A DNA stretch of 64,000 nt from the NCBI GenBank assembly GCA_011364965.1, contig RDOB01000005.1:32001-96000 (forward strand), read 5' to 3'. This DNA comes from Candidatus Heimdallarchaeota archaeon. Its GTDB lineage: Archaea; Asgardarchaeota; Heimdallarchaeia; Hodarchaeales; Hodarchaeaceae. How positions within the stretch are numbered: the first letter of the stretch is position 1; the number at the start of each line of letters is the position of its first letter. The notes below the pieces were generated by a model. It was given only the letters and a program-made list of their open reading frames with translations. It was not told the DNA's origin and did no database searches. This document shows, one piece after another, positions 3,688-27,980 of this stretch. Position numbers and translations under genes: made by a program.

Positions 3688-6600
3688 ATGAAAAATAGTG
3701 GTGTAGAATTAATGTCTATCAGTGAAGAGGAGTTTTCTTTAACTAAACAGGAATTAAGGTTATATTCTTTATTAATAAAGTTTGGCCCAAAGACGAAAAA
3801 GGAATTAATTCTTTCCCTAGATCTTCAAGAGAAGGGGGATAAATTTGAAGAGATTTTGGGGAAATTAATTCAAAAAGGGCTTATAACAAGCTCGGATGAA
3901 TTTTATTATCCCAGTATCCCAATAGAGAATATTATCAATATTTTAAACTTAAATTTAACTACTCTAAAAGATAATCAGAAGAATGTAAATGATTCTTTCA
4001 GTCTCCAGAAAAAGATTTTGGATGAGAATTTAAAGATACTTAAGAATTCGCTAGAAAATCAGTTGAATGAATCAAAATCTATCAATTCAGAATTAAATAA
4101 GTCATTAAAATCAGAAATTTCGGAGATTGAGAAGACACATGTGGGTAAAGCCGAAGAACTCACAGAGAATTTTATTGGAGAATTAAAAACGCGATATATT
4201 GAGAAATTCTCTGAAACTCAATCGAAATTATCAACTGAAGAAGCCCAACTTGAAAAAAATTGGGCCACAGCTGTAGAAGGATTTTATTCTCTTCCAGCAT
4301 CAGGAACCCGCAATATACGCGAATCTGTTTCTCATTACGAAAAAGAGCTCTCAAATATTATAGATACAACAACTACTCGAATTGAAGAAATTCAGAGTCA
4401 AATGGGTGATATTCTCACGGTTCTTGAAACCGAATCTGCTTCACAATTAAATGAATTTTTTTCAAACACACAAACAGCCTCCAATGAGTTCAAAACAAAC
4501 CTACTGACTGAAATAGGAGAGACACGCAAACATGAGAAGGATTTTATTTCCGATGTTCGAAAGAATATCCAAGTCAATTTTGTAGAAAAGATCGATCGGG
4601 TGTTGAAAAAGGTATCTGATGGTTTGATTAAAGAAATTGATGAAGAAATTGATAAAACTCTCGTTAACATAAGGAAAGAAACGTTAGATGCAATCTCAGA
4701 CAGTTCCAGTAAGCTTAAAGCTGAATTTCAAGAGTTTAAAGACAATGCTTCTGAATTAATCCTAGAACAAAAATCTTATCTTGAAGTACTTGACTCTGAG
4801 CTCTCTGATTTCTCCAATGAACAAAAATTACCAAATAAAAAAGAGCTTTTCATTAAACAGCTTCAAGCTCATTTATCCACTGATATTACGTCTTTAGAAA
4901 CGAATTATCTTCGCATACAAAAAACTGTTACAGAAATAATGGAGTCAATTAGACGAACTGCAAAAAATAAGTTAATAGAACAAACTGCTGAATTTGATGT
5001 CCTTCTTAATAAATTTTCTGATGTTACAGAGAAACATCTTTCGAGAAAAGATACTGATATAATTCGACTCCAGCAGTTGTCTCAATCAATTGACCAGTTT
5101 CTAAGAAACCTTTTGGTTTCTATACCTGGAAGGGCAAATCAATTCAAAACTTCTTTGAAAGATTCATTTGATAGTTCCATTAATGAAGTACAAAATCAGA
5201 TGGGAGATTCAACTTACAGTTCTATTCAAGAAATTAACACCATTCTTCAGGGTTCGCAAAAACGAGTTCAGGGGTCATTCAAAGAATCCATTGATGACAG
5301 TAAAAGAGAGATTGCAAATGTTATCGCTTCTCTTGATCAGTTTGCAACCACTATTACAAATCTACAATCAAATTATTCGGAAAAAATTGAACCAAGGTTT
5401 GATCAAAGAGCAAAAATAATGAATACAGAACTCGAAGCAGTTGCTCGTAATTTTCAACAGGTTTTAAATGGAATGGAGTCTGGATATGCCGATATAAATG
5501 AAAAACTTGCTTCAGAGCATTATATAAACGTAACCAATATTCAATCATCCTTCCAAAGCTCATCTTCGCAGCTTAAAGGGGAAATCGACTCGATTTTTTC
5601 ACAAAATCGCGCGAAAAATCAAGAATATCTTTCTCAATTGGATTCAACTCTTCAAGTTCATCTAGATCGCACTATTGAAGCAATAAAAGAGGGTTTTAGT
5701 CAAATTAAAGATGAATTCAATACAGAACTTGAAAACCAAGTTAAAGAATTGAATGGTTTTAATGAAGAACAGCAAGCTAATCTTAGTACAACAGTTGAGT
5801 CATTTATTCAACAGGGAGAGAAATATCTTGAGGATTTTAGAACCAATCTTGGTAAAAACCTAGATGAAAATCAAAAGAAGGTATCTGAATTCATCACAGA
5901 AACTCGTAAGTCAACAAATGAAGTTGTTTCCCTTCATAAATCAAATATTTCAAAATATCAGGAAAAAGGCCCAACTGATATTTTATCCTTCATAAAACAA
6001 ATTGAATCAGAGATTTCTAATCAAACTAAAAACGTTAGAGAAGCCATGGAAGAACTTGAGGTATATTATAATGAGTTATCAGATTCAACTCAAGGGGAAA
6101 TTTCTAGGTTACTACTTCAAGTTCAAGAGAGCGGTGATAAACTCAAGGCATTGGTTAAAGATTCCCTTCATGTTATCACTAATAGTTTAGAGAGGGCAAA
6201 TGAGTCAATTGACACTTACTTTTCAGATTCCCTCACAGATCTTGAAAATCAGGTCGGAGTGGCCTCTGGGTTCATAACATCAGAAGTTGAGACCTCTGCT
6301 TTATCAATCCAAGAGGAAGTTGAAGTTCTAAAAAAGGATCTGAAGGATAATATTGATAAACTTAGTTCAGGAGTGAAAGAAATCATCGAAAGCCAAGATC
6401 AAGATTTCCAAATTAAAATTCCAGAATTTTCAAAGGAATTTGATCAAACATTCCAAAATATGATTGGAGATAGGAAGCAACAACACCAGGATCTTGAACA
6501 GAAAACACAGGAATCTTTAGAATCCTTAATAGTATCGTGGAATAAACAAATGTCAAGTGGAAAAGAAAAATTAGTAGATGTTTCCACACAGCTTGATAAA

Positions 6601-7884
6601 GCAATTGGAAATAATCTTGAAAACTTAAGAGTTATTCTAGATTCCAATATTGAATCAACGTTGAAACAAATCAATACAATTTATCATATTGAGGATTCAA
6701 AAGATATTTTTGGATTAAAAGAGATTCAAGCTACAATTAAACAAACTAATAAGCGAATTCAATCTGCTATCTCTGAAATGTTGAAATCTCATATTGAAGA
6801 ATTTGACAGTAACATTCCTGATATTGTTAATTCATATGAAGCTATACACGCACAGACTGAAGAAGATCTAAATAAGTATCTAGAAGATTTAGGAGATCTA
6901 ATTTCGAGTTATCAAACTTCTGTGACAAATCAATTTCGTAATTACTTAAAGGATGAAAGAGAAAATATAGACTTTAAAGAAACAAATGAAGAACTAAAAG
7001 CTGTAGTACGTAATTTCAGCCAATCAACCTCTCAGAACATAGAATCGTTATCTAAAGATCTGGAAGATAATATTAAATTATCTCTTGATCAAATAAATAA
7101 ATCAAAAACGGCCATTGAAGCTCTTTTCAACAATTTAAATCAAATTAAATCAGAAGAAAATGAGAAATTAAGCGAGGAACTGACAAAATTCAAAAATACA
7201 GTTTTAACGTCGCTAGAACAGAACACAGAAGAAATTGTGAATCAAGTGAGTGCTAATATTGATCGTCATTATAACGAACTCGAGAAAAGTTCGTTAGCTC
7301 AATCTGGAAACGTAACAAATTTAATTCAAAGAATAAATGATGAAATTGAAAAACAGATATTGAGTATTCAGACTGAAACCACTAATAATTTCACTCAAAT
7401 GAGTCAAAATCAAGATTCCTTACAAGTAATATTAGAGAAAATTCAAGAGGAACTCTCTCAAACAAAACCTCTTGAGACGATAAGAACAGTTAATCTCGAT
7501 TCAGATGAGAGTAAAAGTACTTACATACTTGATATACTGAAATCGGCCGAGAAAAATGTCACGATCTTCTCATCAAATCCCACTTTTTTACCAGTTGCTG
7601 ATTTGAAGTCGATACCCTCTCAAAAACGAATTTGGATATTCACGAGTTTCGATTTCACTAAAAAAGGGAAAAAATGGTTTACAGACCTAAGCGAGCAAGT
7701 AAATATCAACTTGAGAGAAGCTAAAGCAAAGAAGATTAACGGGATTTTCGTGATCCAAGATGAGAAGCTTGCTTTAGTACTTCCTGAGAATTTAGGTTTA
7801 CTTATCGCAGATCCTAAATTTGTAACGAATCTTTCAGCACTTTTAGGTACTTTAAAGGGATCCACAATACGTGGATCCTCTTAA
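3688..7884 (+). CDS. Giant TrmB-like wHTH + long (hendecad) coiled coil + C-terminal PLD-like domain protein
   Basis: N-term LTKQELRLYSLLIKFGPKT...LGKLIQKGLI (TrmB-type wHTH); >1100 aa helical rod; C-term ILDILKSAEKNVTIF...IFVIQDEKLALV (TrmB effector/PLD-like, no HKD); start may be 3712. Confidence 0.8.
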   Translation: MKNSGVELMSISEEEFSLTKQELRLYSLLIKFGPKTKKELILSLDLQEKGDKFEEILGKLIQKGLITSSDEFYYPSIPIENIINILNLNLTTLKDNQKNVNDSFSLQKKILDENLKILKNSLENQLNESKSINSELNKSLKSEISEIEKTHVGKAEELTENFIGELKTRYIEKFSETQSKLSTEEAQLEKNWATAVEGFYSLPASGTRNIRESVSHYEKELSNIIDTTTTRIEEIQSQMGDILTVLETESASQLNEFFSNTQTASNEFKTNLLTEIGETRKHEKDFISDVRKNIQVNFVEKIDRVLKKVSDGLIKEIDEEIDKTLVNIRKETLDAISDSSSKLKAEFQEFKDNASELILEQKSYLEVLDSELSDFSNEQKLPNKKELFIKQLQAHLSTDITSLETNYLRIQKTVTEIMESIRRTAKNKLIEQTAEFDVLLNKFSDVTEKHLSRKDTDIIRLQQLSQSIDQFLRNLLVSIPGRANQFKTSLKDSFDSSINEVQNQMGDSTYSSIQEINTILQGSQKRVQGSFKESIDDSKREIANVIASLDQFATTITNLQSNYSEKIEPRFDQRAKIMNTELEAVARNFQQVLNGMESGYADINEKLASEHYINVTNIQSSFQSSSSQLKGEIDSIFSQNRAKNQEYLSQLDSTLQVHLDRTIEAIKEGFSQIKDEFNTELENQVKELNGFNEEQQANLSTTVESFIQQGEKYLEDFRTNLGKNLDENQKKVSEFITETRKSTNEVVSLHKSNISKYQEKGPTDILSFIKQIESEISNQTKNVREAMEELEVYYNELSDSTQGEISRLLLQVQESGDKLKALVKDSLHVITNSLERANESIDTYFSDSLTDLENQVGVASGFITSEVETSALSIQEEVEVLKKDLKDNIDKLSSGVKEIIESQDQDFQIKIPEFSKEFDQTFQNMIGDRKQQHQDLEQKTQESLESLIVSWNKQMSSGKEKLVDVSTQLDKAIGNNLENLRVILDSNIESTLKQINTIYHIEDSKDIFGLKEIQATIKQTNKRIQSAISEMLKSHIEEFDSNIPDIVNSYEAIHAQTEEDLNKYLEDLGDLISSYQTSVTNQFRNYLKDERENIDFKETNEELKAVVRNFSQSTSQNIESLSKDLEDNIKLSLDQINKSKTAIEALFNNLNQIKSEENEKLSEELTKFKNTVLTSLEQNTEEIVNQVSANIDRHYNELEKSSLAQSGNVTNLIQRINDEIEKQILSIQTETTNNFTQMSQNQDSLQVILEKIQEELSQTKPLETIRTVNLDSDESKSTYILDILKSAEKNVTIFSSNPTFLPVADLKSIPSQKRIWIFTSFDFTKKGKKWFTDLSEQVNINLREAKAKKINGIFVIQDEKLALVLPENLGLLIADPKFVTNLSALLGTLKGSTIRGSS

Positions 7885-9749: not shown

Positions 9750-11201
9750 TTAGAGCTTAACATAATTTAAACTAATTTTCCGATTGGATACGTTTAGGAT
9801 TTTTGTATTTGATGCAACTTTTTCGTTATTATAAGTGAAAAGCTCTATTAATCTCGAGAAGACATCTTTGTCACATTCAGACTTTATTTTATCACGAAAA
9901 TCCCAGAGAGACAAAAACCATTTTTCTGAAAGAAATTTTTGCTTATCTAATTTTGAATCTTCTTTCTCCTGTTTAGATTTTGTTTTATAATCAAATTTAC
10001 CTTTTTGATAGATTAAAACCTCATAATACTCGTGTTGGAACACTACTGTTTCATTATTTTTTGTTTTAACCACCCAATTTTTATTATTTTTATACCAAAC
10101 CGTAATTTTATCTCTAAGCCTTATTCCTTGATTCATAATTTGATCATTTATGATATGTAATGGAATTTTTTCTATATTCTCTTGAATTGAATCATATAGT
10201 ACTATAAGAATACGACCATCCCGCAAATGCTTTAGTAGTTCGCTAAAATTTGGGTTCAAGCCAGATTCGTGTAAATTTCTCATATCTAATATTAATAAAT
10301 CGTATTTTGAGACACCTGAATGATTGAATTTTGGATTAAGTGCTAAGTTTATTAATGAAAGGTTCCCTGACTTTCCTTTCCTCTTTTTTTTAATTTGATA
10401 ATTATTAGATGATTTTAAAAACTTAAAAATTGAATTGTGAGTAGCATTGGTTGAAAATTTATGGCCAACTTTTTCTTCAATAATTGAAAGCAGTTCTTTC
10501 AGTTTCTCTATACCAATAGAATTTCGATTCAAGTCTCGTGCTACTTTCATTGTTGTACCAGAACCCAAAAAAGGATCGCATACCCACTCTTTTTCGCGAG
10601 TAAAGAGATTAATCAATTTTTTAGGTAATTCTTCTGGGAAAGCAGCAATATTTTCCTCTAATCGTCCTTTGATGGGAAGTACATTAGTCATCGGCCAGAT
10701 ATCTTGAGTAATTTTAAGTTCCGAATTGGATTTGCTTTCCATGAAATCCCCAGATTTTTGAAAAATCAAGATGTTTTCAATCAAATTGTCAGGATAGTAA
10801 TACATCGGATAGGGATGTTGTAAAAACACTCCGCTTCGCCTGCTAATGCGAATATAACCTTCAGGTTTTTTCCAGATAATTTGTCCTCTTAATTTAAATC
10901 CGATTTTCATTAAAATTTTAGTTAGATCTGCAATTATAGGATATTTGATCCCTTTTACAAGCATATCATCAATATTGAGAGAAATAATTCCTTTTGGAGC
11001 TATTCGAGCAAAAAATCTATTACCAAAATCCTCAATTAAGCTCAAAAATTCCTCATAATTTCTATAAAAATCTTCATAATCAAAAGGGGCATTAAAATAA
11101 GGTGGAGAAGTAATTAATAAGTCAATTAAAGGCAATCGATCTATTTCACTTGTTTTGGTACAATCTCCAAGGATAAGATAATGCGAAATACTATCGTTCA
11201 T
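9750..11201 (-). CDS. Beta-class N4C/N6A DNA methyltransferase with degenerate C-terminal duplicate domain (orphan)
   Basis: TSPPY (motif IV) precedes DPFLGSGTT (motif I); C-terminal ~200 aa repeats the fold without these motifs. Confidence 0.88.
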   Translation of the reverse strand: MNDSISHYLILGDCTKTSEIDRLPLIDLLITSPPYFNAPFDYEDFYRNYEEFLSLIEDFGNRFFARIAPKGIISLNIDDMLVKGIKYPIIADLTKILMKIGFKLRGQIIWKKPEGYIRISRRSGVFLQHPYPMYYYPDNLIENILIFQKSGDFMESKSNSELKITQDIWPMTNVLPIKGRLEENIAAFPEELPKKLINLFTREKEWVCDPFLGSGTTMKVARDLNRNSIGIEKLKELLSIIEEKVGHKFSTNATHNSIFKFLKSSNNYQIKKKRKGKSGNLSLINLALNPKFNHSGVSKYDLLILDMRNLHESGLNPNFSELLKHLRDGRILIVLYDSIQENIEKIPLHIINDQIMNQGIRLRDKITVWYKNNKNWVVKTKNNETVVFQHEYYEVLIYQKGKFDYKTKSKQEKEDSKLDKQKFLSEKWFLSLWDFRDKIKSECDKDVFSRLIELFTYNNEKVASNTKILNVSNRKISLNYVKL

Positions 11202-11354: not shown

Positions 11355-11376
11355 TCATAATTTACAACTATTATGA
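11355..11376. promoter_or_regulatory. 22-bp palindrome, candidate transcription-factor site upstream of the gdh operon
   Basis: TCATAAT-ttacaact-ATTATGA; same TCRTAA-N10-TTAYGA pattern as 16455-16476. Confidence 0.45.
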
Positions 11377-11615: not shown

Positions 11616-12803
11616 ATGACCGCTTCATTGAATGTTCAAAAGCTTATTCAAGAAACCTCCATACCCTTAGCTGATAATCTCAATATCATTTCTTTTTTGG
11701 ACAAATGGGGTCCAGAACAGATAGTACAAGTATATGATCCCGATGTTAAGATGCTTGGATTCCTTATTATTGATAATACCTTTCTAGGGCCATCAATTGG
11801 AGGATTACGTGTCTCAAATACAACGACTCCTTATGATGCTTTTCAATTAGCACGTACGATGACTTGGAAATCTGCGTTATATAATTACGGATATGGAGGA
11901 GGAATGGCTGTCATTCACTCAAATCCATTCGGGGTTGAAAAATCAAAGTTAATAAGGTCATTTGCTAAAAAAATCTCTCAATATGTACCAGAAAAATTCA
12001 TAGCTTCTCCAGACATGAATATAGATGAAGAGGATTTACTACTTTTTGCTGAAACAATTGGTGATATGAAATCTGTAACTGGAAAACCCTTAAAGAAGGG
12101 AGGTATTCCTTCCAAATTAGGTATGGTTGGTTTTGGAATAGGTGTGTCATTAGAATCCACAATAAAGCTATTAGAAGAATATAACCACGTAAAAAATAGT
12201 ATTGGTAATAAAGTGGTGATTCAAGGATTCGGAAGTGTCGGTTCAGGCTTAGCTAAATACCTTTATAGTAAAGGGTTTCAAATTGTGGGCATTTGTGATT
12301 ACTGGGGAGCTATTCACGATCCTAAAGGCATCGAAATTCCTAGTATAGAAAAGAACTCCTCTGCTCGCGAGGAGAAGTCATCATTAAAGAATTTAAAACG
12401 TCTATCAGTGATCAAAAGGGATGAAATATGTTCTATTGATTCTGACATTTTTATCCCTTGTGCTTGTGAAAGAACAGTAAACGAAGTTAATTATGCCCAA
12501 ATTAAAGGGAAAGTTATCATAGAGGGTGCCAATAAAGCAATTTCACCACTTGCAGAGATTCAGTTGATTAAAAATGGAAAAATAATTGTTCCTGATCTCA
12601 TTTCAAATATTGGGGGATTAATTTCTTCCTACTCCGAATATAAGCAAATTGGAGTTAATGAAACATTTTCAATAATTCAATCCTCAGTTGAATCAGTAAC
12701 AAAAGAAATTATGAAAAGCTCTTTGGAATCAGGACTCACTTTGCGAAGAATCGCAACTGAAATCGCGAAGGAGAGAATACTAACTTCTATGGAGGCGAAT
12801 TAA
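11616..12803 (+). CDS. Glu/Leu/Phe/Val dehydrogenase homologue, probably catalytically inactive (regulatory subunit?)
   Basis: GDH fold (LARTMTWK, PDMN, VTGKP..GG, IQGFGSVG, EGAN) but GPSIGG replaces GPxKGG and GGGMA replaces GGxKG. Confidence 0.85.
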   Translation: MTASLNVQKLIQETSIPLADNLNIISFLDKWGPEQIVQVYDPDVKMLGFLIIDNTFLGPSIGGLRVSNTTTPYDAFQLARTMTWKSALYNYGYGGGMAVIHSNPFGVEKSKLIRSFAKKISQYVPEKFIASPDMNIDEEDLLLFAETIGDMKSVTGKPLKKGGIPSKLGMVGFGIGVSLESTIKLLEEYNHVKNSIGNKVVIQGFGSVGSGLAKYLYSKGFQIVGICDYWGAIHDPKGIEIPSIEKNSSAREEKSSLKNLKRLSVIKRDEICSIDSDIFIPCACERTVNEVNYAQIKGKVIIEGANKAISPLAEIQLIKNGKIIVPDLISNIGGLISSYSEYKQIGVNETFSIIQSSVESVTKEIMKSSLESGLTLRRIATEIAKERILTSMEAN

Positions 12804-12808
12804 AGAAA

Positions 12809-13540
12809 ATGGAAGATGCTTTCGCTACATTTGATGAATCGTTTAACTATCTAGACCATATTAACACTCCATATCTCTCTAGTAAGATAAAAGGAAAATT
12901 TCCTGTGGAATCTTTTCATCCCTGTTATTTAGAGATGCCCAAAGATTCTTTAAAGATGAATTTATGCGGACGGAGTAATTATCAATCGAAAAATAAGAAA
13001 AAGAGTACTAATTGGATTAATAGACGGATAATAGAATTACCCATATATGATACCAATCGAAAGGATTCCTTTAATTGGAGGGAAATTACAAACTTTTGGT
13101 CTTCTTCCTCATCACTTGAAGATATCCCTTGTATCACGCTTGTGTTCAAAATAAGGGGATATTATTCCGCTTTTCGTGAAGCTCAGGTATTTACTGTCTT
13201 ACTTGTATGGCCTGGGTACTGTCGAATGCTTGAATTAGATTGGTATGAGGGGCCTGAAGATGATTGCATTACCCCTGAATGGTATATTCATTCACACAGG
13301 ATCCTAACGTTGGATAGAGCAATCAAACGGCTTAATTTGTCATATAAGAACGAACCTGGTTGGACAAATATAATTTACTCTATATATGTAAACCCGTACC
13401 AAATAGGAAATTCTCTGAAAGGAGATAAACAACATGGGGAGCCTGAACCCTGGATTTTTAAATGGAATTATAGTAAAGAGCAAGATTTCAGAGTGGAGAT
13501 GGATAATATGCTCTGCGAGATTTGTAAAATAATGGAGTAA
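12809..13540 (+). CDS. Hypothetical protein (Trp/Cys/Tyr-rich), within gdh operon
   Basis: 243-aa ORF, 5 nt after upstream stop and 6 nt before next start; GGAGG-like RBS upstream. Confidence 0.75.
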   Translation: MEDAFATFDESFNYLDHINTPYLSSKIKGKFPVESFHPCYLEMPKDSLKMNLCGRSNYQSKNKKKSTNWINRRIIELPIYDTNRKDSFNWREITNFWSSSSSLEDIPCITLVFKIRGYYSAFREAQVFTVLLVWPGYCRMLELDWYEGPEDDCITPEWYIHSHRILTLDRAIKRLNLSYKNEPGWTNIIYSIYVNPYQIGNSLKGDKQHGEPEPWIFKWNYSKEQDFRVEMDNMLCEICKIME

Positions 13541-13546
13541 GGAATT

Positions 13547-13942
13547 ATGGCAAATTTGTATTTAGGTTATGATATTAAAGACAAAGATCAATTCAACGTA
13601 CACGATTTGATAAGCCAGATCAAAGAAGAAGGTTTATTTGATCTAATCTTTACATCAGAGGATCTATTTGAAGATGAATCTTCTTCAAATGATGATTACT
13701 GGATGCAACAATCTGATTTTTGTATTTTCCTCTGTTCAAAGAACACTTCAAATTGTGCACGTCTATGTGATGATGTATATCAGGCTTTTTATGAAGGAAA
13801 AAAGATTATTCCCATATATAACAGTTTTGCAAATATATTTCCTCTCATAAGACATATTGAGGGGATCAAAATCGAAAGAAACGAGAGTTGTGTGAATAAA
13901 GTAGTGAAAAAACTCAATAAACTTATTGAAAGAGGTATGTGA
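13547..13942 (+). CDS. Standalone TIR-domain protein (catalytic Glu position appears to be Asp)
   Basis: LYLGY..KD (FxSY equivalent), SDFCIFLCSKNT, RLCDDVYQAF, KKIIPIY, PLI: TIR_2 secondary-structure pattern. Confidence 0.7.
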   Translation: MANLYLGYDIKDKDQFNVHDLISQIKEEGLFDLIFTSEDLFEDESSSNDDYWMQQSDFCIFLCSKNTSNCARLCDDVYQAFYEGKKIIPIYNSFANIFPLIRHIEGIKIERNESCVNKVVKKLNKLIERGM

Positions 13943-13943
13943 A

Positions 13944-15248
13944 ATGGAAATAACAAAACGAGAGATTTTCCACCAGAAAGAACTATCTGAGGATGAAACA
14001 AATCCATGGCAGAATGCATTAATACAGTTAAATGAGGCTGCAAAGGTAATAAACTTAGACAATAATATACTAAAGATTTTGGAAAGGCCCGCAACTACCC
14101 TTATCACTACTTTTCCAGTCACTATGGATGATGGAAGTATTGAAGTATTCGAGGGTTATCGTGTACAGCATAATATGTCACGGGGTCCTTGTAAAGGTGG
14201 TATTCGATTCTCCCCCTCGGTTAATATTGACGAAGTAAAAGCTCTAGCTGCTTGGATGACATGGAAAACAGCTGTCACTAATATTCCTTATGGTGGGGCA
14301 AAAGGTGGAGTAGTTGTCGATCCTAGCAAGCTTAGTCAATCAGAATTGCAGCGTCTTGTTAGAAGGTTTACTTATTCAATTATTTCCTTAATTGGTCCAA
14401 ACTCAGACATTCCCGCTCCTGATATCAATACAAATCCTGAGATAATGGCTGTAATGATGGATACGTATTCAATGATTAAAGGGCATACAGAGTTAGGAGT
14501 AGTGACAGGAAAACCAATAGAGGTTGGGGGTTCTCTTGGCCGGAAAGAAGCTACTGGTCGGGGTGTTTATATCACAATGGAAGAAGCACTCCATCAACAA
14601 AATAAGCAGTGTTGTGATGGGGTTAAAATAGCAATTCAGGGTTTTGGTAATGTAGGATCGCATTTCGCTAGAATTGCTTATGAAAATAAAGCAAAAATTA
14701 TAGGAGTTACTGACATATTTGGAGGGGTTTATAACCCAAATGGACTCGATATCCCCGATCTCATATCTTACGTTGAAAATTCAGGGAAGAGATCTGTAGT
14801 AGGCTATCCAGGTGCTGATCCGTTACCACAAGCTGACATTTTCTCCCTAGATGTCGATGTTCTTGCACCATGTGCTCTTGAAAATCAGATTACAACTTCT
14901 AATGCTGAAATTATTGAAGCGAGTTTAATTGTCGAAGGCGCAAATGGCCCTACTACTCCAAGAGCTGATAAAATTTTGAATGAAAGGGGAATTGTGGTAA
15001 TTCCTGATATTCTAGCTAATGCAGGTGGAGTAGTATGTAGTTACTTTGAATGGGTTCAATCTCTGCAATCTTTCTTCTGGTCTGATGATCAGGTAAATAA
15101 TGCGCTTTCAAACATCTTAATTAAATCATTCAAGGAAGTAAATCTCTATAAAAGTAGATATAATATCCAAGATCTCAGAACTGCTGCTATGTGTTTAGCG
15201 GTAAACAGAGTTGCTAAAGCTATTAAATTACGTGGTATATTCCCGTAA
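13944..15248 (+). CDS. gdhA: Glutamate dehydrogenase (NAD(P)-dependent), catalytically intact
   Basis: GYRVQH, GPCKGGIR, MTWKTA, GGAKGG, DIPAPD, GGSLGRKEATGRG, QGFGNVG, ANAGGV; ATG 13944 after AGAGGT preferred over TTG 13926. Confidence 0.96.
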   Translation: MEITKREIFHQKELSEDETNPWQNALIQLNEAAKVINLDNNILKILERPATTLITTFPVTMDDGSIEVFEGYRVQHNMSRGPCKGGIRFSPSVNIDEVKALAAWMTWKTAVTNIPYGGAKGGVVVDPSKLSQSELQRLVRRFTYSIISLIGPNSDIPAPDINTNPEIMAVMMDTYSMIKGHTELGVVTGKPIEVGGSLGRKEATGRGVYITMEEALHQQNKQCCDGVKIAIQGFGNVGSHFARIAYENKAKIIGVTDIFGGVYNPNGLDIPDLISYVENSGKRSVVGYPGADPLPQADIFSLDVDVLAPCALENQITTSNAEIIEASLIVEGANGPTTPRADKILNERGIVVIPDILANAGGVVCSYFEWVQSLQSFFWSDDQVNNALSNILIKSFKEVNLYKSRYNIQDLRTAAMCLAVNRVAKAIKLRGIFP

Positions 15249-15262
15249 TTTCCTTTCTTTTT
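15249..15262 (+). terminator. Oligo-T tract after gdh stop, candidate archaeal terminator
   Basis: tttcctttcttttt between the convergent gdh and regulator genes. Confidence 0.35.
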
Positions 15263-16339
15263 TTATATTCTTTCATCATCCTGCATTAATGAGACAATCT
15301 CTCTTCCATGAACACTGCGCAGCTTTTTTTCGATAAATTGTAAGGGAACATAATTCTGGTTGATGGAGAAAGCCATCGCTGAAGAGATATACGTATTTTT
15401 TACAGCACCTATGCTGTTTGGGAATCTATTCTGTAAATCTTCTTGCCATTGAAGGTGATCTTTTACATAATAAAATATTATTCCCATAAAATAGTTATAT
15501 CGACCTTCATTTATTTTTATAAGCATAGGGATGTGATCATCTTTTCTCAAATATTTTAATACAGCATCTTTCTGGTCATTTATCTCTACGAGTGATAGTA
15601 CAAAAAAATAATCTGGTGGAATAAATGCTCTTGGAAATCGTGCACTTGGACGTGTAATAATGTTTTCTTCTAACATTGAAACGAGTTTATTTTGAATGGT
15701 GCGACGATTTACACCCATCCTTCGAGCTAGTAAATTCTCATTTGTTTTTATACCCTTCCCTTTTAAAACATATTTAGCGATCTCTAATGAAAGGTTATCG
15801 AGTTCTAGGCCTTTTAATTTGTGGATTTTTCCAGTATTATAGTCATCAATTACAATGTTAATACCAATTGATGGTTTATACTTTAACATTCTTTTAGTGC
15901 TGAATAGCAAAGCTTCAGGTGGATTTTGATTCTCAAAGGTTGTGATAAGGCCTTCCTCAAACATAGCATCACACCAACTTTGATATTGGAATAAGTCCTC
16001 GTGAAATTGAATTGTTAGTGTGTTATAGACTCCCTCTTTAAAGAAGAAGGCAGCATAAATTTGTGGATCAAGCGCAACAAATTCATTAGTTTTCTCATCC
16101 CTCGCTAAATCATCCTTGGAAATCACAAGTAGAGGGTATTCAGTTAGAAGGCGTTCGAAGGAGTAAAAGGGTCTCGTAATTATCTCATTATCAATTAATA
16201 GTTTTAATCGGGTCTTAATTGTATTTCTATGCTTTTTAAAATGGTCCGATAAGTCACTTAGATTAAAATTCACCCCTATTCCTGAAGTTAAATACTTTAA
16301 TAACGTGAGGGAAATTTCATTCTCTAAATGGTATGCCAC
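15263..16339 (-). CDS. Tandem (two-repeat) Lrp/AsnC-like transcriptional regulator
   Basis: Two HTHs (NLSDLSDHFKKHRNTIKTRLKLLIDNEII; NENLLARRMGVNRRTIQNKLVSMLEENII), each followed by a RAM-like segment (EGVYNTL / EGRYNYF). Confidence 0.8.
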   Translation of the reverse strand: MAYHLENEISLTLLKYLTSGIGVNFNLSDLSDHFKKHRNTIKTRLKLLIDNEIITRPFYSFERLLTEYPLLVISKDDLARDEKTNEFVALDPQIYAAFFFKEGVYNTLTIQFHEDLFQYQSWCDAMFEEGLITTFENQNPPEALLFSTKRMLKYKPSIGINIVIDDYNTGKIHKLKGLELDNLSLEIAKYVLKGKGIKTNENLLARRMGVNRRTIQNKLVSMLEENIITRPSARFPRAFIPPDYFFVLSLVEINDQKDAVLKYLRKDDHIPMLIKINEGRYNYFMGIIFYYVKDHLQWQEDLQNRFPNSIGAVKNTYISSAMAFSINQNYVPLQFIEKKLRSVHGREIVSLMQDDERI

Positions 16340-16454
16340 GATTCTTCGAGAAAAAATTAAATTTCTCCTTTAAAGATTTTTTTGGGCCTTAGCACCAATC
16401 AACATTTTTAACTAGATATTCAGATAAAAAAGTCAAATCATATCATTTTTTTCG

Positions 16455-16476
16455 TCGTAAAAGGTATATTTTACGA
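16455..16476. promoter_or_regulatory. 22-bp perfect-arm palindrome upstream of the Lrp-like regulator
   Basis: TCGTAAAA-ggtata-TTTTACGA in the divergent intergenic region. Confidence 0.5.
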
Positions 16477-16548
16477 TGTTATTATTATTTTAATACCGCA
16501 TTACCAATTTATTAAAGGACATTCACTCCCACTAATATTGGACACTTA

Positions 16549-17082
16549 ATGAATTTTAATTTGAATCTGGTAAAGAAAGTGCAGAAAAGAAATTTTAGAC
16601 TGTTAGAGCTGGTAAATGTTACAATAATGAGTTTTGCCTATATTGCATTATTTTTCTCAGGTTTTCTTAGGCCTGATCAACCATATAACTATTTTATTGG
16701 ATCTTTTGGTTGGATTATATGGTTTCTGGGACTTATGTTGGCATTGTCACCCAATTTTGTATTAAAACAAAGAGGTGAGGTTCCTGAGGGAAAATCATAT
16801 ATTCACACTACCAAATTAGTAAAGGATGGGATTTATGGAGTAATGCGCCATCCTCAATATACTGGCGGGATTGTGATTGCTTTTGCTATGTGTTTAATAA
16901 TCCAAGCTATATTGACATACTTTTTAGCAGTAATTGCGTTAATAACAGCTTATCTTTCAATGGTTTTTGAGGAAGAGCGATTATTGATTAAATTTGGGCT
17001 TGATTATGAAAGTTATAAAGCGAAAGTTCCAAGAGCCAACTTTTTAATAGGCTTCCTCAGAAAAGTGAAAAATCTAAGGTAA
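16549..17082 (+). CDS. Isoprenylcysteine carboxyl methyltransferase / PEMT family membrane protein
   Basis: LVKDGIYGVMRHPQYTG, EEERLLIKFG.DY..YKAKVPR, TM helices. Confidence 0.9.
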   Translation: MNFNLNLVKKVQKRNFRLLELVNVTIMSFAYIALFFSGFLRPDQPYNYFIGSFGWIIWFLGLMLALSPNFVLKQRGEVPEGKSYIHTTKLVKDGIYGVMRHPQYTGGIVIAFAMCLIIQAILTYFLAVIALITAYLSMVFEEERLLIKFGLDYESYKAKVPRANFLIGFLRKVKNLR

Positions 17083-26511: not shown

Positions 26512-27240
26512 TTGATTGGTATTAACATTATAACTAAGGAAGGATTACTCCTCTTCTCTCATTTCTTCATACCAGCTTTCTCTGATGTTGATGAAGACTT
26601 GCGTGCCGGATTGATGACTGCAGTTTTAAATGCAATGAAGGAAACACAGGGAGATAAAGGGATTAAAGTTATTGATCAGGGTGGTTACTTCGTTCATATT
26701 GTAGAAGGGAAATTGACATATGGTTTGCTTTTTTCTCAAGAGAATGCTCAAACAGAATACAGATTTGCTGATTCCATCGTTAAACGATTTGAAGCCCTTT
26801 TTGGCGATCGCGTAGCTAATCAAGTATCTTTTGTTGAAACAGAATTTACGGAATTCTCAAAATATGTTAAGACAGAATACAACAAATTAATGCAAATTGA
26901 TGTTGTTGCTCTCTCAGAAATGATAGCAACTATGAATTCCTCCTTCTTTACGGACTATATTATCTTAGAAAAGCCGAATCTGCATCAAGTTTTTACTACA
27001 ACGTCTTCTTATCCTGATATTCATCCCTATGCAAATCAAATTGGAACGATGTGTAAAAATCTTGTTGAATCGAGTATAGAGATCGGTCAGGAAGTTACTC
27101 AAATACAATTTAATCTTGGGGGGAAATATCTAGTTATTGTTGAACGATTCAGAAAATACCTCGTTATTTTGATTATTCTACGTAAAGATCATGAAAAAGC
27201 GTTAAAGGAGATTCTACGGATACGGAATAAAATTACTTAA
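26512..27240 (+). CDS. Longin-like domain protein, paralogue A
   Basis: INIITKEGLLLFSH / DEDLRAGLMTAV / KRFE longin pattern plus a second alpha/beta domain. Confidence 0.75.
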   Translation: MIGINIITKEGLLLFSHFFIPAFSDVDEDLRAGLMTAVLNAMKETQGDKGIKVIDQGGYFVHIVEGKLTYGLLFSQENAQTEYRFADSIVKRFEALFGDRVANQVSFVETEFTEFSKYVKTEYNKLMQIDVVALSEMIATMNSSFFTDYIILEKPNLHQVFTTTSSYPDIHPYANQIGTMCKNLVESSIEIGQEVTQIQFNLGGKYLVIVERFRKYLVILIILRKDHEKALKEILRIRNKIT

Positions 27241-27980
27241 GTTTGACATACTTCCATGATATTTTTCTGAATCCGTACAAGTTCTTTTTTCACTATATCC
27301 TTTTTGGATTGATTTTCTGGTAGAATTACTACGACGGAATGTGAGGCGGCTACTATTGCATGAAGATGGATTTCTTCAAAACTAATATCACTCAATATGT
27401 GCTCCTGGTTGATTTTTGAACCGAATTCAACTATTCCTCTAAAGATTTGAGTTAATTGATTTGCATATGAACTGATAACTGGATCAACAACACTCATGAA
27501 TACAGGATTAAAAAATTTGTCTTCATATATTATATAATCAGAAATAGAGGAGCGTTGCATTATCTCTAGGATTTTACCCACTTTAGAAATATCAATATTT
27601 AATAAAGCAGAATATTCCTTAGTTACAACTTCTCTAAAGTCTTCAAAATCTTTACGATTGAAAATTATTCCTTTGTGAAGTTCATATGTGTACATTAATT
27701 CGAATCTCAACACAATTTTGCGGATAAATCCATGAAGGGTAGGATCATCTTTAGTAGTTGTTAAAATCCCATATGTTAGAACTCCTTCATAAAGCACTAA
27801 ATGGTAATCTTTATGCTTAATAGAGCTGATTGATTCTCCTTGTGTTTCACGAAGTACATTTAATACTGCAGTGAGAAGCCCTGCTCGCATATCCCTATCT
27901 TCTTCTTGTAAATTAACTCCTGAGAATGGATGAGAAAAAACCAGAATTCCATTCTTCGTGATGATGTTTAATTCGAGCAC
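27237..27980 (-). CDS. Longin-like domain protein, paralogue B
   Basis: LNIITKNGILVFSH / DRDMRAGLLTAV / LRFE; colinear with paralogue A. Confidence 0.75.
   Translation of the reverse strand: MLELNIITKNGILVFSHPFSGVNLQEEDRDMRAGLLTAVLNVLRETQGESISSIKHKDYHLVLYEGVLTYGILTTTKDDPTLHGFIRKIVLRFELMYTYELHKGIIFNRKDFEDFREVVTKEYSALLNIDISKVGKILEIMQRSSISDYIIYEDKFFNPVFMSVVDPVISSYANQLTQIFRGIVEFGSKINQEHILSDISFEEIHLHAIVAASHSVVVILPENQSKKDIVKKELVRIQKNIMEVCQT

Follow-up and report, generated by a model that had tools for sequence, protein, structure and literature searches.

A candidate accessory module of a dehydrogenase-like protein and an orphan protein in a glutamate-linked redox gene cluster of Asgard archaea

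Organization of the Locus

The locus described here occupies positions 11616 to 16339 of a 64,000-nucleotide stretch of DNA (the window, on contig RDOB01000005.1) from the 87% complete assembly of an Asgard archaeon, and the focus is on two of its genes, a dehydrogenase-like gene and the orphan that follows it, as a candidate accessory module for glutamate-linked redox flux. Four genes on the forward strand are separated by gaps of only 5, 6, and 1 nucleotides, an arrangement described in a first-pass annotation and borne out by the coordinates of the open reading frames. Gene 1 (11616–12803, 395 amino acids) encodes a homologue of the Glu/Leu/Phe/Val dehydrogenases, referred to here by its clade, DH1, which is pseudoenzyme-like and keeps its motifs for the binding of nicotinamide adenine dinucleotide, NAD(H). 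Gene 2 (12809–13540, 243 amino acids) encodes a conserved orphan protein with an unmatched alpha/beta fold, which is the predicted partner of gene 1. These are followed by a stand-alone TIR-fold protein (gene 3, 13547–13942, 131 amino acids) and an intact hexamer-type glutamate dehydrogenase, or GDH (gene 4, 13944–15248, 434 amino acids from its ATG). Gene 5 (15263–16339, 358 amino acids), on the reverse strand, converges on the operon and encodes a single-chain regulator with a tandem winged helix-turn-helix (wHTH) arrangement of the Lrp/AsnC-like type. An inverted repeat, TCRTAA-N10-TTAYGA, is found at 11355–11376, 261 nucleotides upstream of gene 1, where it represents a candidate operator of this regulator, and again at 16455–16476, 137 nucleotides upstream of gene 5, as a putative site of autoregulation.

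The DH1 Clade

Gene 1 scores 60.6 bits against ELFV_dehydrog_N and 126.8 bits against ELFV_dehydrog, well above the respective Pfam cut-offs (25.3 and 23.4), which places it in the Glu/Leu/Phe/Val dehydrogenase superfamily. An active GDH has three lysines in its active site, including the catalytic one, together with an aspartate, and gene 1 has lost two of these lysines, as the first-pass annotation had recognized. Ile61 replaces the first active-site lysine and Met97 the third (catalytic) one, and Lys85, Asp133, the glycine motif of the Rossmann fold at 204–209, and Asp228 are all retained. Gene 4, which is about 30% identical to gene 1, keeps Lys84, Lys108, Lys120, Asp160, the Arg200 of the GGSxGR motif, and the RGIFP end. 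It matches solved hexameric GDHs over its full length (closest to the Thermotoga-type structures 1b3b and 1b26, E about 1e-148), falls below the NCBIfam equivalog cut-offs, and has the residues and the alignment by which an active hexamer-type GDH is predicted, in agreement with its earlier description as intact. Elsewhere in the genome, outside the window (G000 C11:427037-428233), there is a third GDH, which belongs to the larger, NADP-like type and also occurs in most of the congeners.

The DH1 proteins form a clade of their own, with a support of 100 and a branch length of 2.3 in a quick, rather than a careful, tree search, and they have a shorter N-terminus and lack the RGIFP end. All three lysines are conserved in 91 of 120 DH1 homologues, together with the catalytic aspartate and the Ala/Val/Ser of the glutamate pocket, and the remainder carry many different replacements on separate branches of the tree. 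In the intact copies, a glutamate occupies the site of the arginine of the GGSxGR motif of GDH. The ratio of non-synonymous to synonymous substitution rates (dN/dS) is 0.09–0.14 in DH1, and is 0.14 for gene 1 when it is compared with a 72%-identical relative that shares both lysine losses, so that, to judge from its sequence, gene 1 is pseudoenzyme-like, conserved, and subject to purifying selection. The window copy sits on a long branch, with 45% identity to its congeners, which are themselves 58% identical to the Thor and Loki copies; for comparison, gene 4 is 66–69% identical to all of these.

A DH1 gene may also be present where no gene-4-type GDH was found, as in the genomes G011 (96% complete), G017 (93%), G389 (98%), G347, G351, and G352, all of which are incomplete assemblies; the DH1 of G011 is lysine-less. 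One further genome, G010, contains a regulator and a strongly degenerate DH1 that are duplicated 11 kb apart together with their flanking genes (L033:4546-6633 and 15458-16999). This degenerate DH1 also lacks the residue of the Asp133 column, and an orphan–GDH pair lies approximately 33 kb away, in a region with assembly gaps.

The Cluster in Related Genomes

The cluster was searched for in 400 Asgard genomes and in 251 genomes of the Bathyarchaeia class, and, as these genomes and loci are related by descent, the counts given here represent conservation rather than a statistical test (the group names Heimdall, Loki, and Thor are inferred assignments). The linkage of the genes, anticipated in the first-pass annotation, recurs in other genomes, but the exact four-gene order of the window was matched in none of the 400 and 251 genomes. 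Among the 21 congeners, orthologues of gene 1 are found in eight, of the TIR gene in six, and of the orphan in seven or eight. The typical order in these genomes is a divergent regulator, gene 1, the TIR gene, an hdrA-mvhD fusion, an frhB-like gene, GXGXG, the flavin mononucleotide (FMN) subunit of glutamate synthase, optional frhB, hdrC, and hdrB genes, the orphan, and GDH. Given that this order differs from that of the window, that the glutamate synthase subunit (GltB) was not found in the window assembly, and that the regulator in the window is a different paralogue, located downstream, the window appears to hold a reduced and rearranged copy of the cluster.

Strong matches to the orphan were recovered from 19 of the 400 Asgard genomes, of which 18 also encode DH1, the exception being a 70% complete assembly with gaps. 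The orphan lies directly 3' of DH1 in 12 of these genomes (that of the window, one other genome of the Heimdallarchaeia, one of the Loki group, and nine of the Thor group), and in two further loci. In G008, G011, G014, a Bathyarchaeia genome, and a JGI contig, it is found 8–10 kb downstream of DH1 in a cluster on the same strand. The orphan was found in two of the 251 Bathyarchaeia-class genomes, and in one Bathyarchaeia genome the cluster is of the long Hdr/GltB type and lacks the TIR gene. In two Heimdallarchaeia (L069:10789-15671 and L098:898-5773), the order is DH1, orphan, nuoE, nuoF, a gene for an Fe-S protein, GltB, and GDH, with the GltB being a divergent 525-residue protein with a Glu_synthase domain. 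In the two genomes with a DH1 and no orphan match, the contig ends inside the cluster.

A second tier of DH1 genes, found in nine genomes, keeps the divergent regulator and has a 94-residue protein in the position of the orphan. This protein (L140–L148 and L151; for example, L141:2692-2976) is conserved, contains cysteine, has no Pfam match, and follows an intact second-tier DH1.

The conserved core of the cluster is formed by the regulator, DH1, and the orphan in the Hodarchaeales-like, Thor, and Loki genomes and in one Bathyarchaeia genome, usually with a GDH, and is often accompanied by an amidotransferase-less glutamate synthase subunit linked with Hdr or Nuo genes. In L031:6977-13893, L032, L038, L068, and L071, for example, the FMN subunit, GXGXG, an FrhB-like protein, and HdrA-MvhD, in some cases with HdrBC, are encoded in one operon. 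The GATase_2 domain was not matched in the three cluster-bearing genomes that were tested (G008, G011, and G014), and the FMN subunit may therefore use free ammonia or run oxidatively. The operon of the relatives possibly encodes an ammonia-using or glutamate-oxidising enzyme that is wired to electron bifurcation.

The Orphan Protein and Its Predicted Complex with DH1

The orphan family comprises 54 close matches and 63 profile matches, and the structural model of the window copy is confident, with a predicted local distance difference test score (pLDDT) of 83. No match was found in Pfam or NCBIfam, and the fold searches returned no hit at E<=0.001 in Foldseek, a best Z of 4.9 in VIA (with a root-mean-square deviation of 3.1 over 93 residues), and a best template modelling (TM) score of 0.42 in the Atlas, where a feature search also came back blank. 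The absence of a fold match is, in itself, no proof that the fold is new. The orphan was also considered as the missing class II glutamine amidotransferase, and it has no N-terminal cysteine and no Ntn structure among the matches listed. The window copy lacks the LIWGxLRN motif found at the N-terminus of the family.

The complex of gene 1 and gene 2 was predicted with a score of 0.68, in comparison with 0.00 for the best of three controls; the score mark applied is reached by 58 of 80 solved pairs and by two of 110 mismatched pairs, which is a rough guide only, as our own alignments were used. The runs share at least 62% of their contacts, and the pLDDT of the partners is at least 73. Recall of a solved pair by the predictor is unlikely, given that the searches found no relative of the orphan with a solved structure. 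The model thus supports the binding of DH1 to the orphan, a predicted partnership to which the first-pass annotation had given too little weight. The predicted interface involves residues 26–30, 76–80, and 310–315 and the C-terminal helices (372–393) of DH1, and residues around 45, 70–73, 95–105, 135–137, and 165–170 of the orphan, which would dock on the exterior of DH1, away from the residues of the substrate pocket.

Some of the contact residues differ between groups of copies. Arg73 of the orphan is one of the best-placed contacts; it is present in every one of 50 close homologues and in none of 17 distant ones, and DH1 was lacking at all five of the loci of these Arg73-less orphans that were examined. 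In DH1, position 382 is acidic in 16 of the 17 orphan-linked copies and in none of the nine copies without the orphan, and position 390 in 13 of 17 and one of nine, respectively, with basic or hydrophobic residues at these positions in the second tier.

The distant orphans tie the family to redox operons more broadly. Three of them (L072:129-929, L074:3032-3784, and L156:6001-6747) head pntAB transhydrogenase operons, two of which also include an aminotransferase and a HisKA_3/GerE two-component pair. At L162:1399-2154 and L157:7077-7817, distant orphans are divergent from a tandem-HTH regulator with no DH1, and, in L162, the orphan is followed by genes resembling those of the small and large subunits of a NiFe hydrogenase.

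The TIR-Fold Protein

The model of gene 3 (pLDDT 83) has a TIR/NDT-type domain, with a Foldseek probability of 1.0 and TM scores of 0.6–0.74 to RPS4, AbTir, and the TIR of SPARTA; the DNPH1/NDT hydrolases score similarly to the TIR domains. Its Pfam match to TIR_2 is below the cut-off, and the sequence and profile searches found no relative in the PDB. The first-pass annotation was right to place an aspartate, Asp76, in the column of the catalytic glutamate (helix C), but this residue is private to the window lineage, and the glutamate is present in 21 of 21 relatives and in the distant Asgard TIRs that were aligned. The catalytic glutamate of the TIR NADases is missing from this copy alone. 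The Asp76 fits a general drift of genes 1–3, given the long branch of gene 1 and the lost motif of the orphan.

The stand-alone TIR is confined to seven genomes of the window genus and one metagenome contig. It was not found in the Thor, Loki, Bathy, or other Heimdall clusters, and the profile otherwise matches, with much lower scores, TIR domains that are mostly inside long proteins, in approximately 75 other Asgard genomes. In all the relatives, the gene lies between DH1 and hdrA, and it adjoins GDH only in the window. The gene also occurs in G011 and G017, two genomes that yielded no gene-4-type GDH. PADLOC returned no defence match for the window TIR, with stray weak matches in three of 22 members, and its neighbours are metabolic genes rather than the partners expected of Thoeris, SPARTA, CBASS, or Pycsar. 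The purifying selection on the gene (dN/dS 0.20–0.29, with retention in the seven congeneric genomes), together with the lack of a PADLOC match, makes a non-defence role possible in this genus. These data point neither to GDH nor to a dead sensor, and the TIR looks like a later, genus-limited insertion, that is, a passenger. The literature searches found no paper on metabolic TIRs in Asgard archaea. A recent insertion of the middle genes was named as a possibility in the first-pass annotation; a recent, low-GC insertion was rejected, given that their guanine-cytosine content is like that of the rest of the window, and their orthologues are conserved.

The Regulator and a Candidate Operator

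The double structure of gene 5 reported in the first-pass annotation is confirmed, with the two halves aligning with each other (hhalign probability 98.4, E 5e-15), as is its convergent orientation. The Lrp/AsnC label is likely but weakly supported, as the HTH matches are below the cut-off, and there is no Pfam match to a RAM domain; the feature neighbours in the Atlas are AsnC-type clusters. A regulator also belongs with the cluster in the relatives, where the regulator–DH1 pair recurs in divergent orientation. Gene 5 is closer (50%) to a paralogue linked with malic enzyme than to the DH1-divergent copies (39–42%). This closest relative is found upstream of a malic enzyme gene at L044:3673-7289 and L032:3968-6659.

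The 2.97-Mb genome holds the inverted repeat four times in exact form, twice at the sites upstream of genes 1 and 5, and a repeat of this kind was shared by both upstream regions in 47 of 2000 shuffles, with the pattern having been defined after the fact. The shared repeat lends moderate support to the prediction that genes 1 and 5 belong to one regulon. No exact copy was found in the relatives, all of which have two or more mismatches, and a palindromic motif fitted to the relatives scores 69, in comparison with 33–47 in shuffles, and scores poorly at the upstream region of gene 5 in the window. A scan for sigma-70 promoters and terminators, a model that is unsuited to archaea, was at chance level.

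A Possible Accessory Module for Glutamate-Linked Redox Flux

The interpretation preferred here, for which the chances appear to be evenly balanced, is that DH1 and the orphan constitute an uncharacterised NAD(H)-sensing accessory module for glutamate-linked redox flux. It is built on the gene order and linkage, the repeated loss of the lysines, the purifying selection, and the retained Rossmann motifs described above. The locus would be an Asgard glutamate/redox cluster in reduced and rearranged form, with a core formed by the tandem Lrp-like regulator, DH1, and the orphan, in which DH1 would be maintained mainly for binding rather than catalysis. In this role, DH1 would read NAD(H), and, in the intact lineages, probably also glutamate or 2-oxoglutarate, and the sensor that it would form together with the orphan would act as an accessory, adjusting the electron flow linked to glutamate. 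Its candidate targets are the GDH of the cluster, the complex of the glutamate synthase FMN subunit with Hdr or Nuo, or the regulator. Of the proteins in the operon, gene 1 rather than the TIR would be the likelier one to sense NAD, if any does so; a dehydrogenase pseudoenzyme that senses NAD is known from Thermus.

A number of points weigh against this interpretation. The evidence for a sensor consists of sequence and structure prediction, and one of the three complex runs scored only 0.44. The mean conservation of the predicted interface of the orphan (0.48) is lower than the orphan average (0.56), and the acidic/basic contrast at positions 382 and 390 sets two clades against each other, which amounts to one comparison rather than many. 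The distant orphans at pntAB and NiFe hydrogenase genes have no DH1, and the binding of DH1 is therefore not the only role of the family. In addition, the copies in the window evolve fast and could have shed some of their function, and most of the DH1 copies, including the nine adjacent to the orphan in the Thor group, look intact, which means that DH1 may simply be an enzyme.

This last point leads to the most serious competitor, which retains a real, if minor, likelihood: DH1 may be a second amino-acid dehydrogenase of the ordinary kind, perhaps acting on a different substrate, and the orphan a structural subunit or assembly factor, with the lysine-less copies, including that of the window, being weakened enzymes or scaffolds with no sensing role. 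The 91 homologues with a complete active site favour this explanation, as do the four Thorarchaeia-group genomes with DH1 and the orphan in which no gene-4-type GDH was found, and the complex prediction suits a structural subunit equally well. However, the catalytic residues have been lost many times independently, with the remainder of the protein under purifying selection, which is unexpected for a plain enzyme.

A broader form of the sensor interpretation, which we consider unlikely as a whole, would have DH1 and the orphan couple the NAD(H)/glutamate status both to a hub formed by the amidotransferase-less glutamate synthase with Hdr or Nuo and to transcription, with one genus adding a TIR, with its glutamate intact, that acts on NAD+ metabolically rather than in defence.

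It is more doubtful still that DH1, with the orphan, is a co-regulator resembling a trigger enzyme, passing a signal to the tandem Lrp-like factor in the way that GDH signals to GltC in Bacillus subtilis (PMC6794564). The regulator and DH1 are the most constant pair of the cluster, their divergent orientation holding at almost all loci that have upstream DNA, the nine second-tier loci in which the 94-residue protein replaces the orphan among them, and two of the distant orphans are likewise divergent from such a regulator. Ordinary control of the operon already explains a divergent Lrp-like gene, however, and the regulator of the window is a different paralogue, placed downstream.

The heterohexamer suggested in the first-pass annotation, in which gene 1 would be a regulatory subunit of the GdhA type that assembles with gene 4 and, as such subunits do, would confer activation by leucine, is highly improbable. 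The shared operon, the inactive GDH homologue, the presence of a gene-4-type GDH in most of the clusters, and the precedent of Thermus (PMC9570180) all speak for this arrangement, but the alignment of GdhA (3aoe_E) with gene 4 runs over the full length (325 bits), and that with gene 1 covers only residues 47–388 (111 bits). DH1, moreover, is not part of the same hexamer clade and has other termini, and its catalytic partner is not always found in the genome, as in G011, with its lysine-less DH1, and the five other genomes named above. Least probable of all is the co-option of a catalytically dead TIR to sense NAD+/ADP-ribose for GDH or to serve as its scaffold, the central proposal of the first-pass annotation, for which the confirmed fold, the 1-nucleotide gap to gene 4, and a conceivable metabolic role of a gene that is retained under selection with no PADLOC match are outweighed by the glutamate of all 21 relatives, the contact with GDH in the window only, the limitation to one genus, and the occurrence of the TIR in G011 and G017.

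Asgard archaea include the lineage thought to be closest to the eukaryotes, and the control of the metabolic branch point of carbon and nitrogen in this group is essentially uncharacterised. With the proposed DH1–orphan module, there is a two-protein complex that is small and can be tested directly, and the DH1 series, which ranges from intact to lysine-less copies, represents a natural record of the formation of pseudoenzymes several times over. Transhydrogenase and hydrogenase operons, too, begin with members of the orphan family, for which no fold match was obtained, and in the relatives of the window the glutamate synthase FMN subunit, wired to Hdr or Nuo and with no amidotransferase found, appears to be an unusual one.

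Other Features of the Window

Directly upstream of the operon, on the reverse strand, lies a gene for an N6/N4 DNA methylase (9750–11201) with two Pfam stretches, the C-terminal half of which resembles a degenerate repeat. A 1398-residue protein encoded on the forward strand at 3688–7884 has a weak TrmB HTH and long, apolipoprotein-like helical repeats. Two convergent, overlapping paralogues (26512–27240, forward, and 27237–27980, reverse) have no Pfam match, and their N-termini are longin-like by eye only.

Comparison with Known Systems

The literature searches, which left most subscription journals outside their coverage, found no paper describing a DH1–orphan module. The principle of control by a pseudoenzyme is not new, given that it is known for the GDH of Thermus, a heterohexamer with the inactive GdhA and an AMP-sensing accessory protein (PMC9570180; bioRxiv 10.1101/2025.10.31.685773); it is the parts and the wiring that are new. 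As in the GdhA–GdhB–APRTh system of Thermus thermophilus (PDB 3AOE), an inactive protein of the GDH fold is encoded together with an active GDH and an accessory protein. Unlike GdhA, however, which is a full-length paralogue of the hexamer clade, gene 1 falls in a clade of its own with different termini, is in many cases intact in other genomes, and does not require a gene-4-type GDH in the genome, and, unlike APRTh, which has the APRT fold, its predicted partner matched no known fold.

The best working analogy for gene 1 may be the ADLP of T. thermophilus, an alanine-dehydrogenase-like pseudoenzyme that keeps its NAD(H) binding and acts via a protein partner (bioRxiv 10.1101/2025.10.31.685773), as a dead amino-acid dehydrogenase working through another protein. 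ADLP is from another fold family and its target is a CoA transferase, however, whereas the NAD(H) binding of gene 1 is predicted from motifs.

The coupling of GDH to glutamate synthase has a precedent in the GudB–GltAB counter-enzyme complex of Bacillus subtilis (bioRxiv 10.1101/2021.04.12.439528), and its coupling to a transcription factor in the RocG–GltC trigger-enzyme circuit of the same species (PMC6794564). As in this control unit, the Asgard relatives encode GDH, the FMN subunit, and a regulator together. What sets the Asgard clusters apart from B. subtilis is that their FMN subunit is split and is partnered by Hdr/Mvh/Frh or Nuo, that a DH1 and the orphan are added, that GATase_2 gave no match in any of the three genomes tested, and that the regulator is tandem Lrp-like rather than of the LysR type.

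Gene 3 resembles the prokaryotic TIR NADases (AbTir, BtpA/TcpB, ThsB, and the TIR of SPARTA) and the related multi-domain TIRs, a family expanded in other Asgard lineages, in its fold and in the conserved glutamate column of its relatives. It differs from these proteins in being stand-alone, in a metabolic operon, with no PADLOC match, and, in this genome only, with an aspartate at the position of the glutamate. By analogy, then, the locus would work like the known pseudoenzyme accessory systems, yet it lies outside the GdhA/GdhB/APRTh family.

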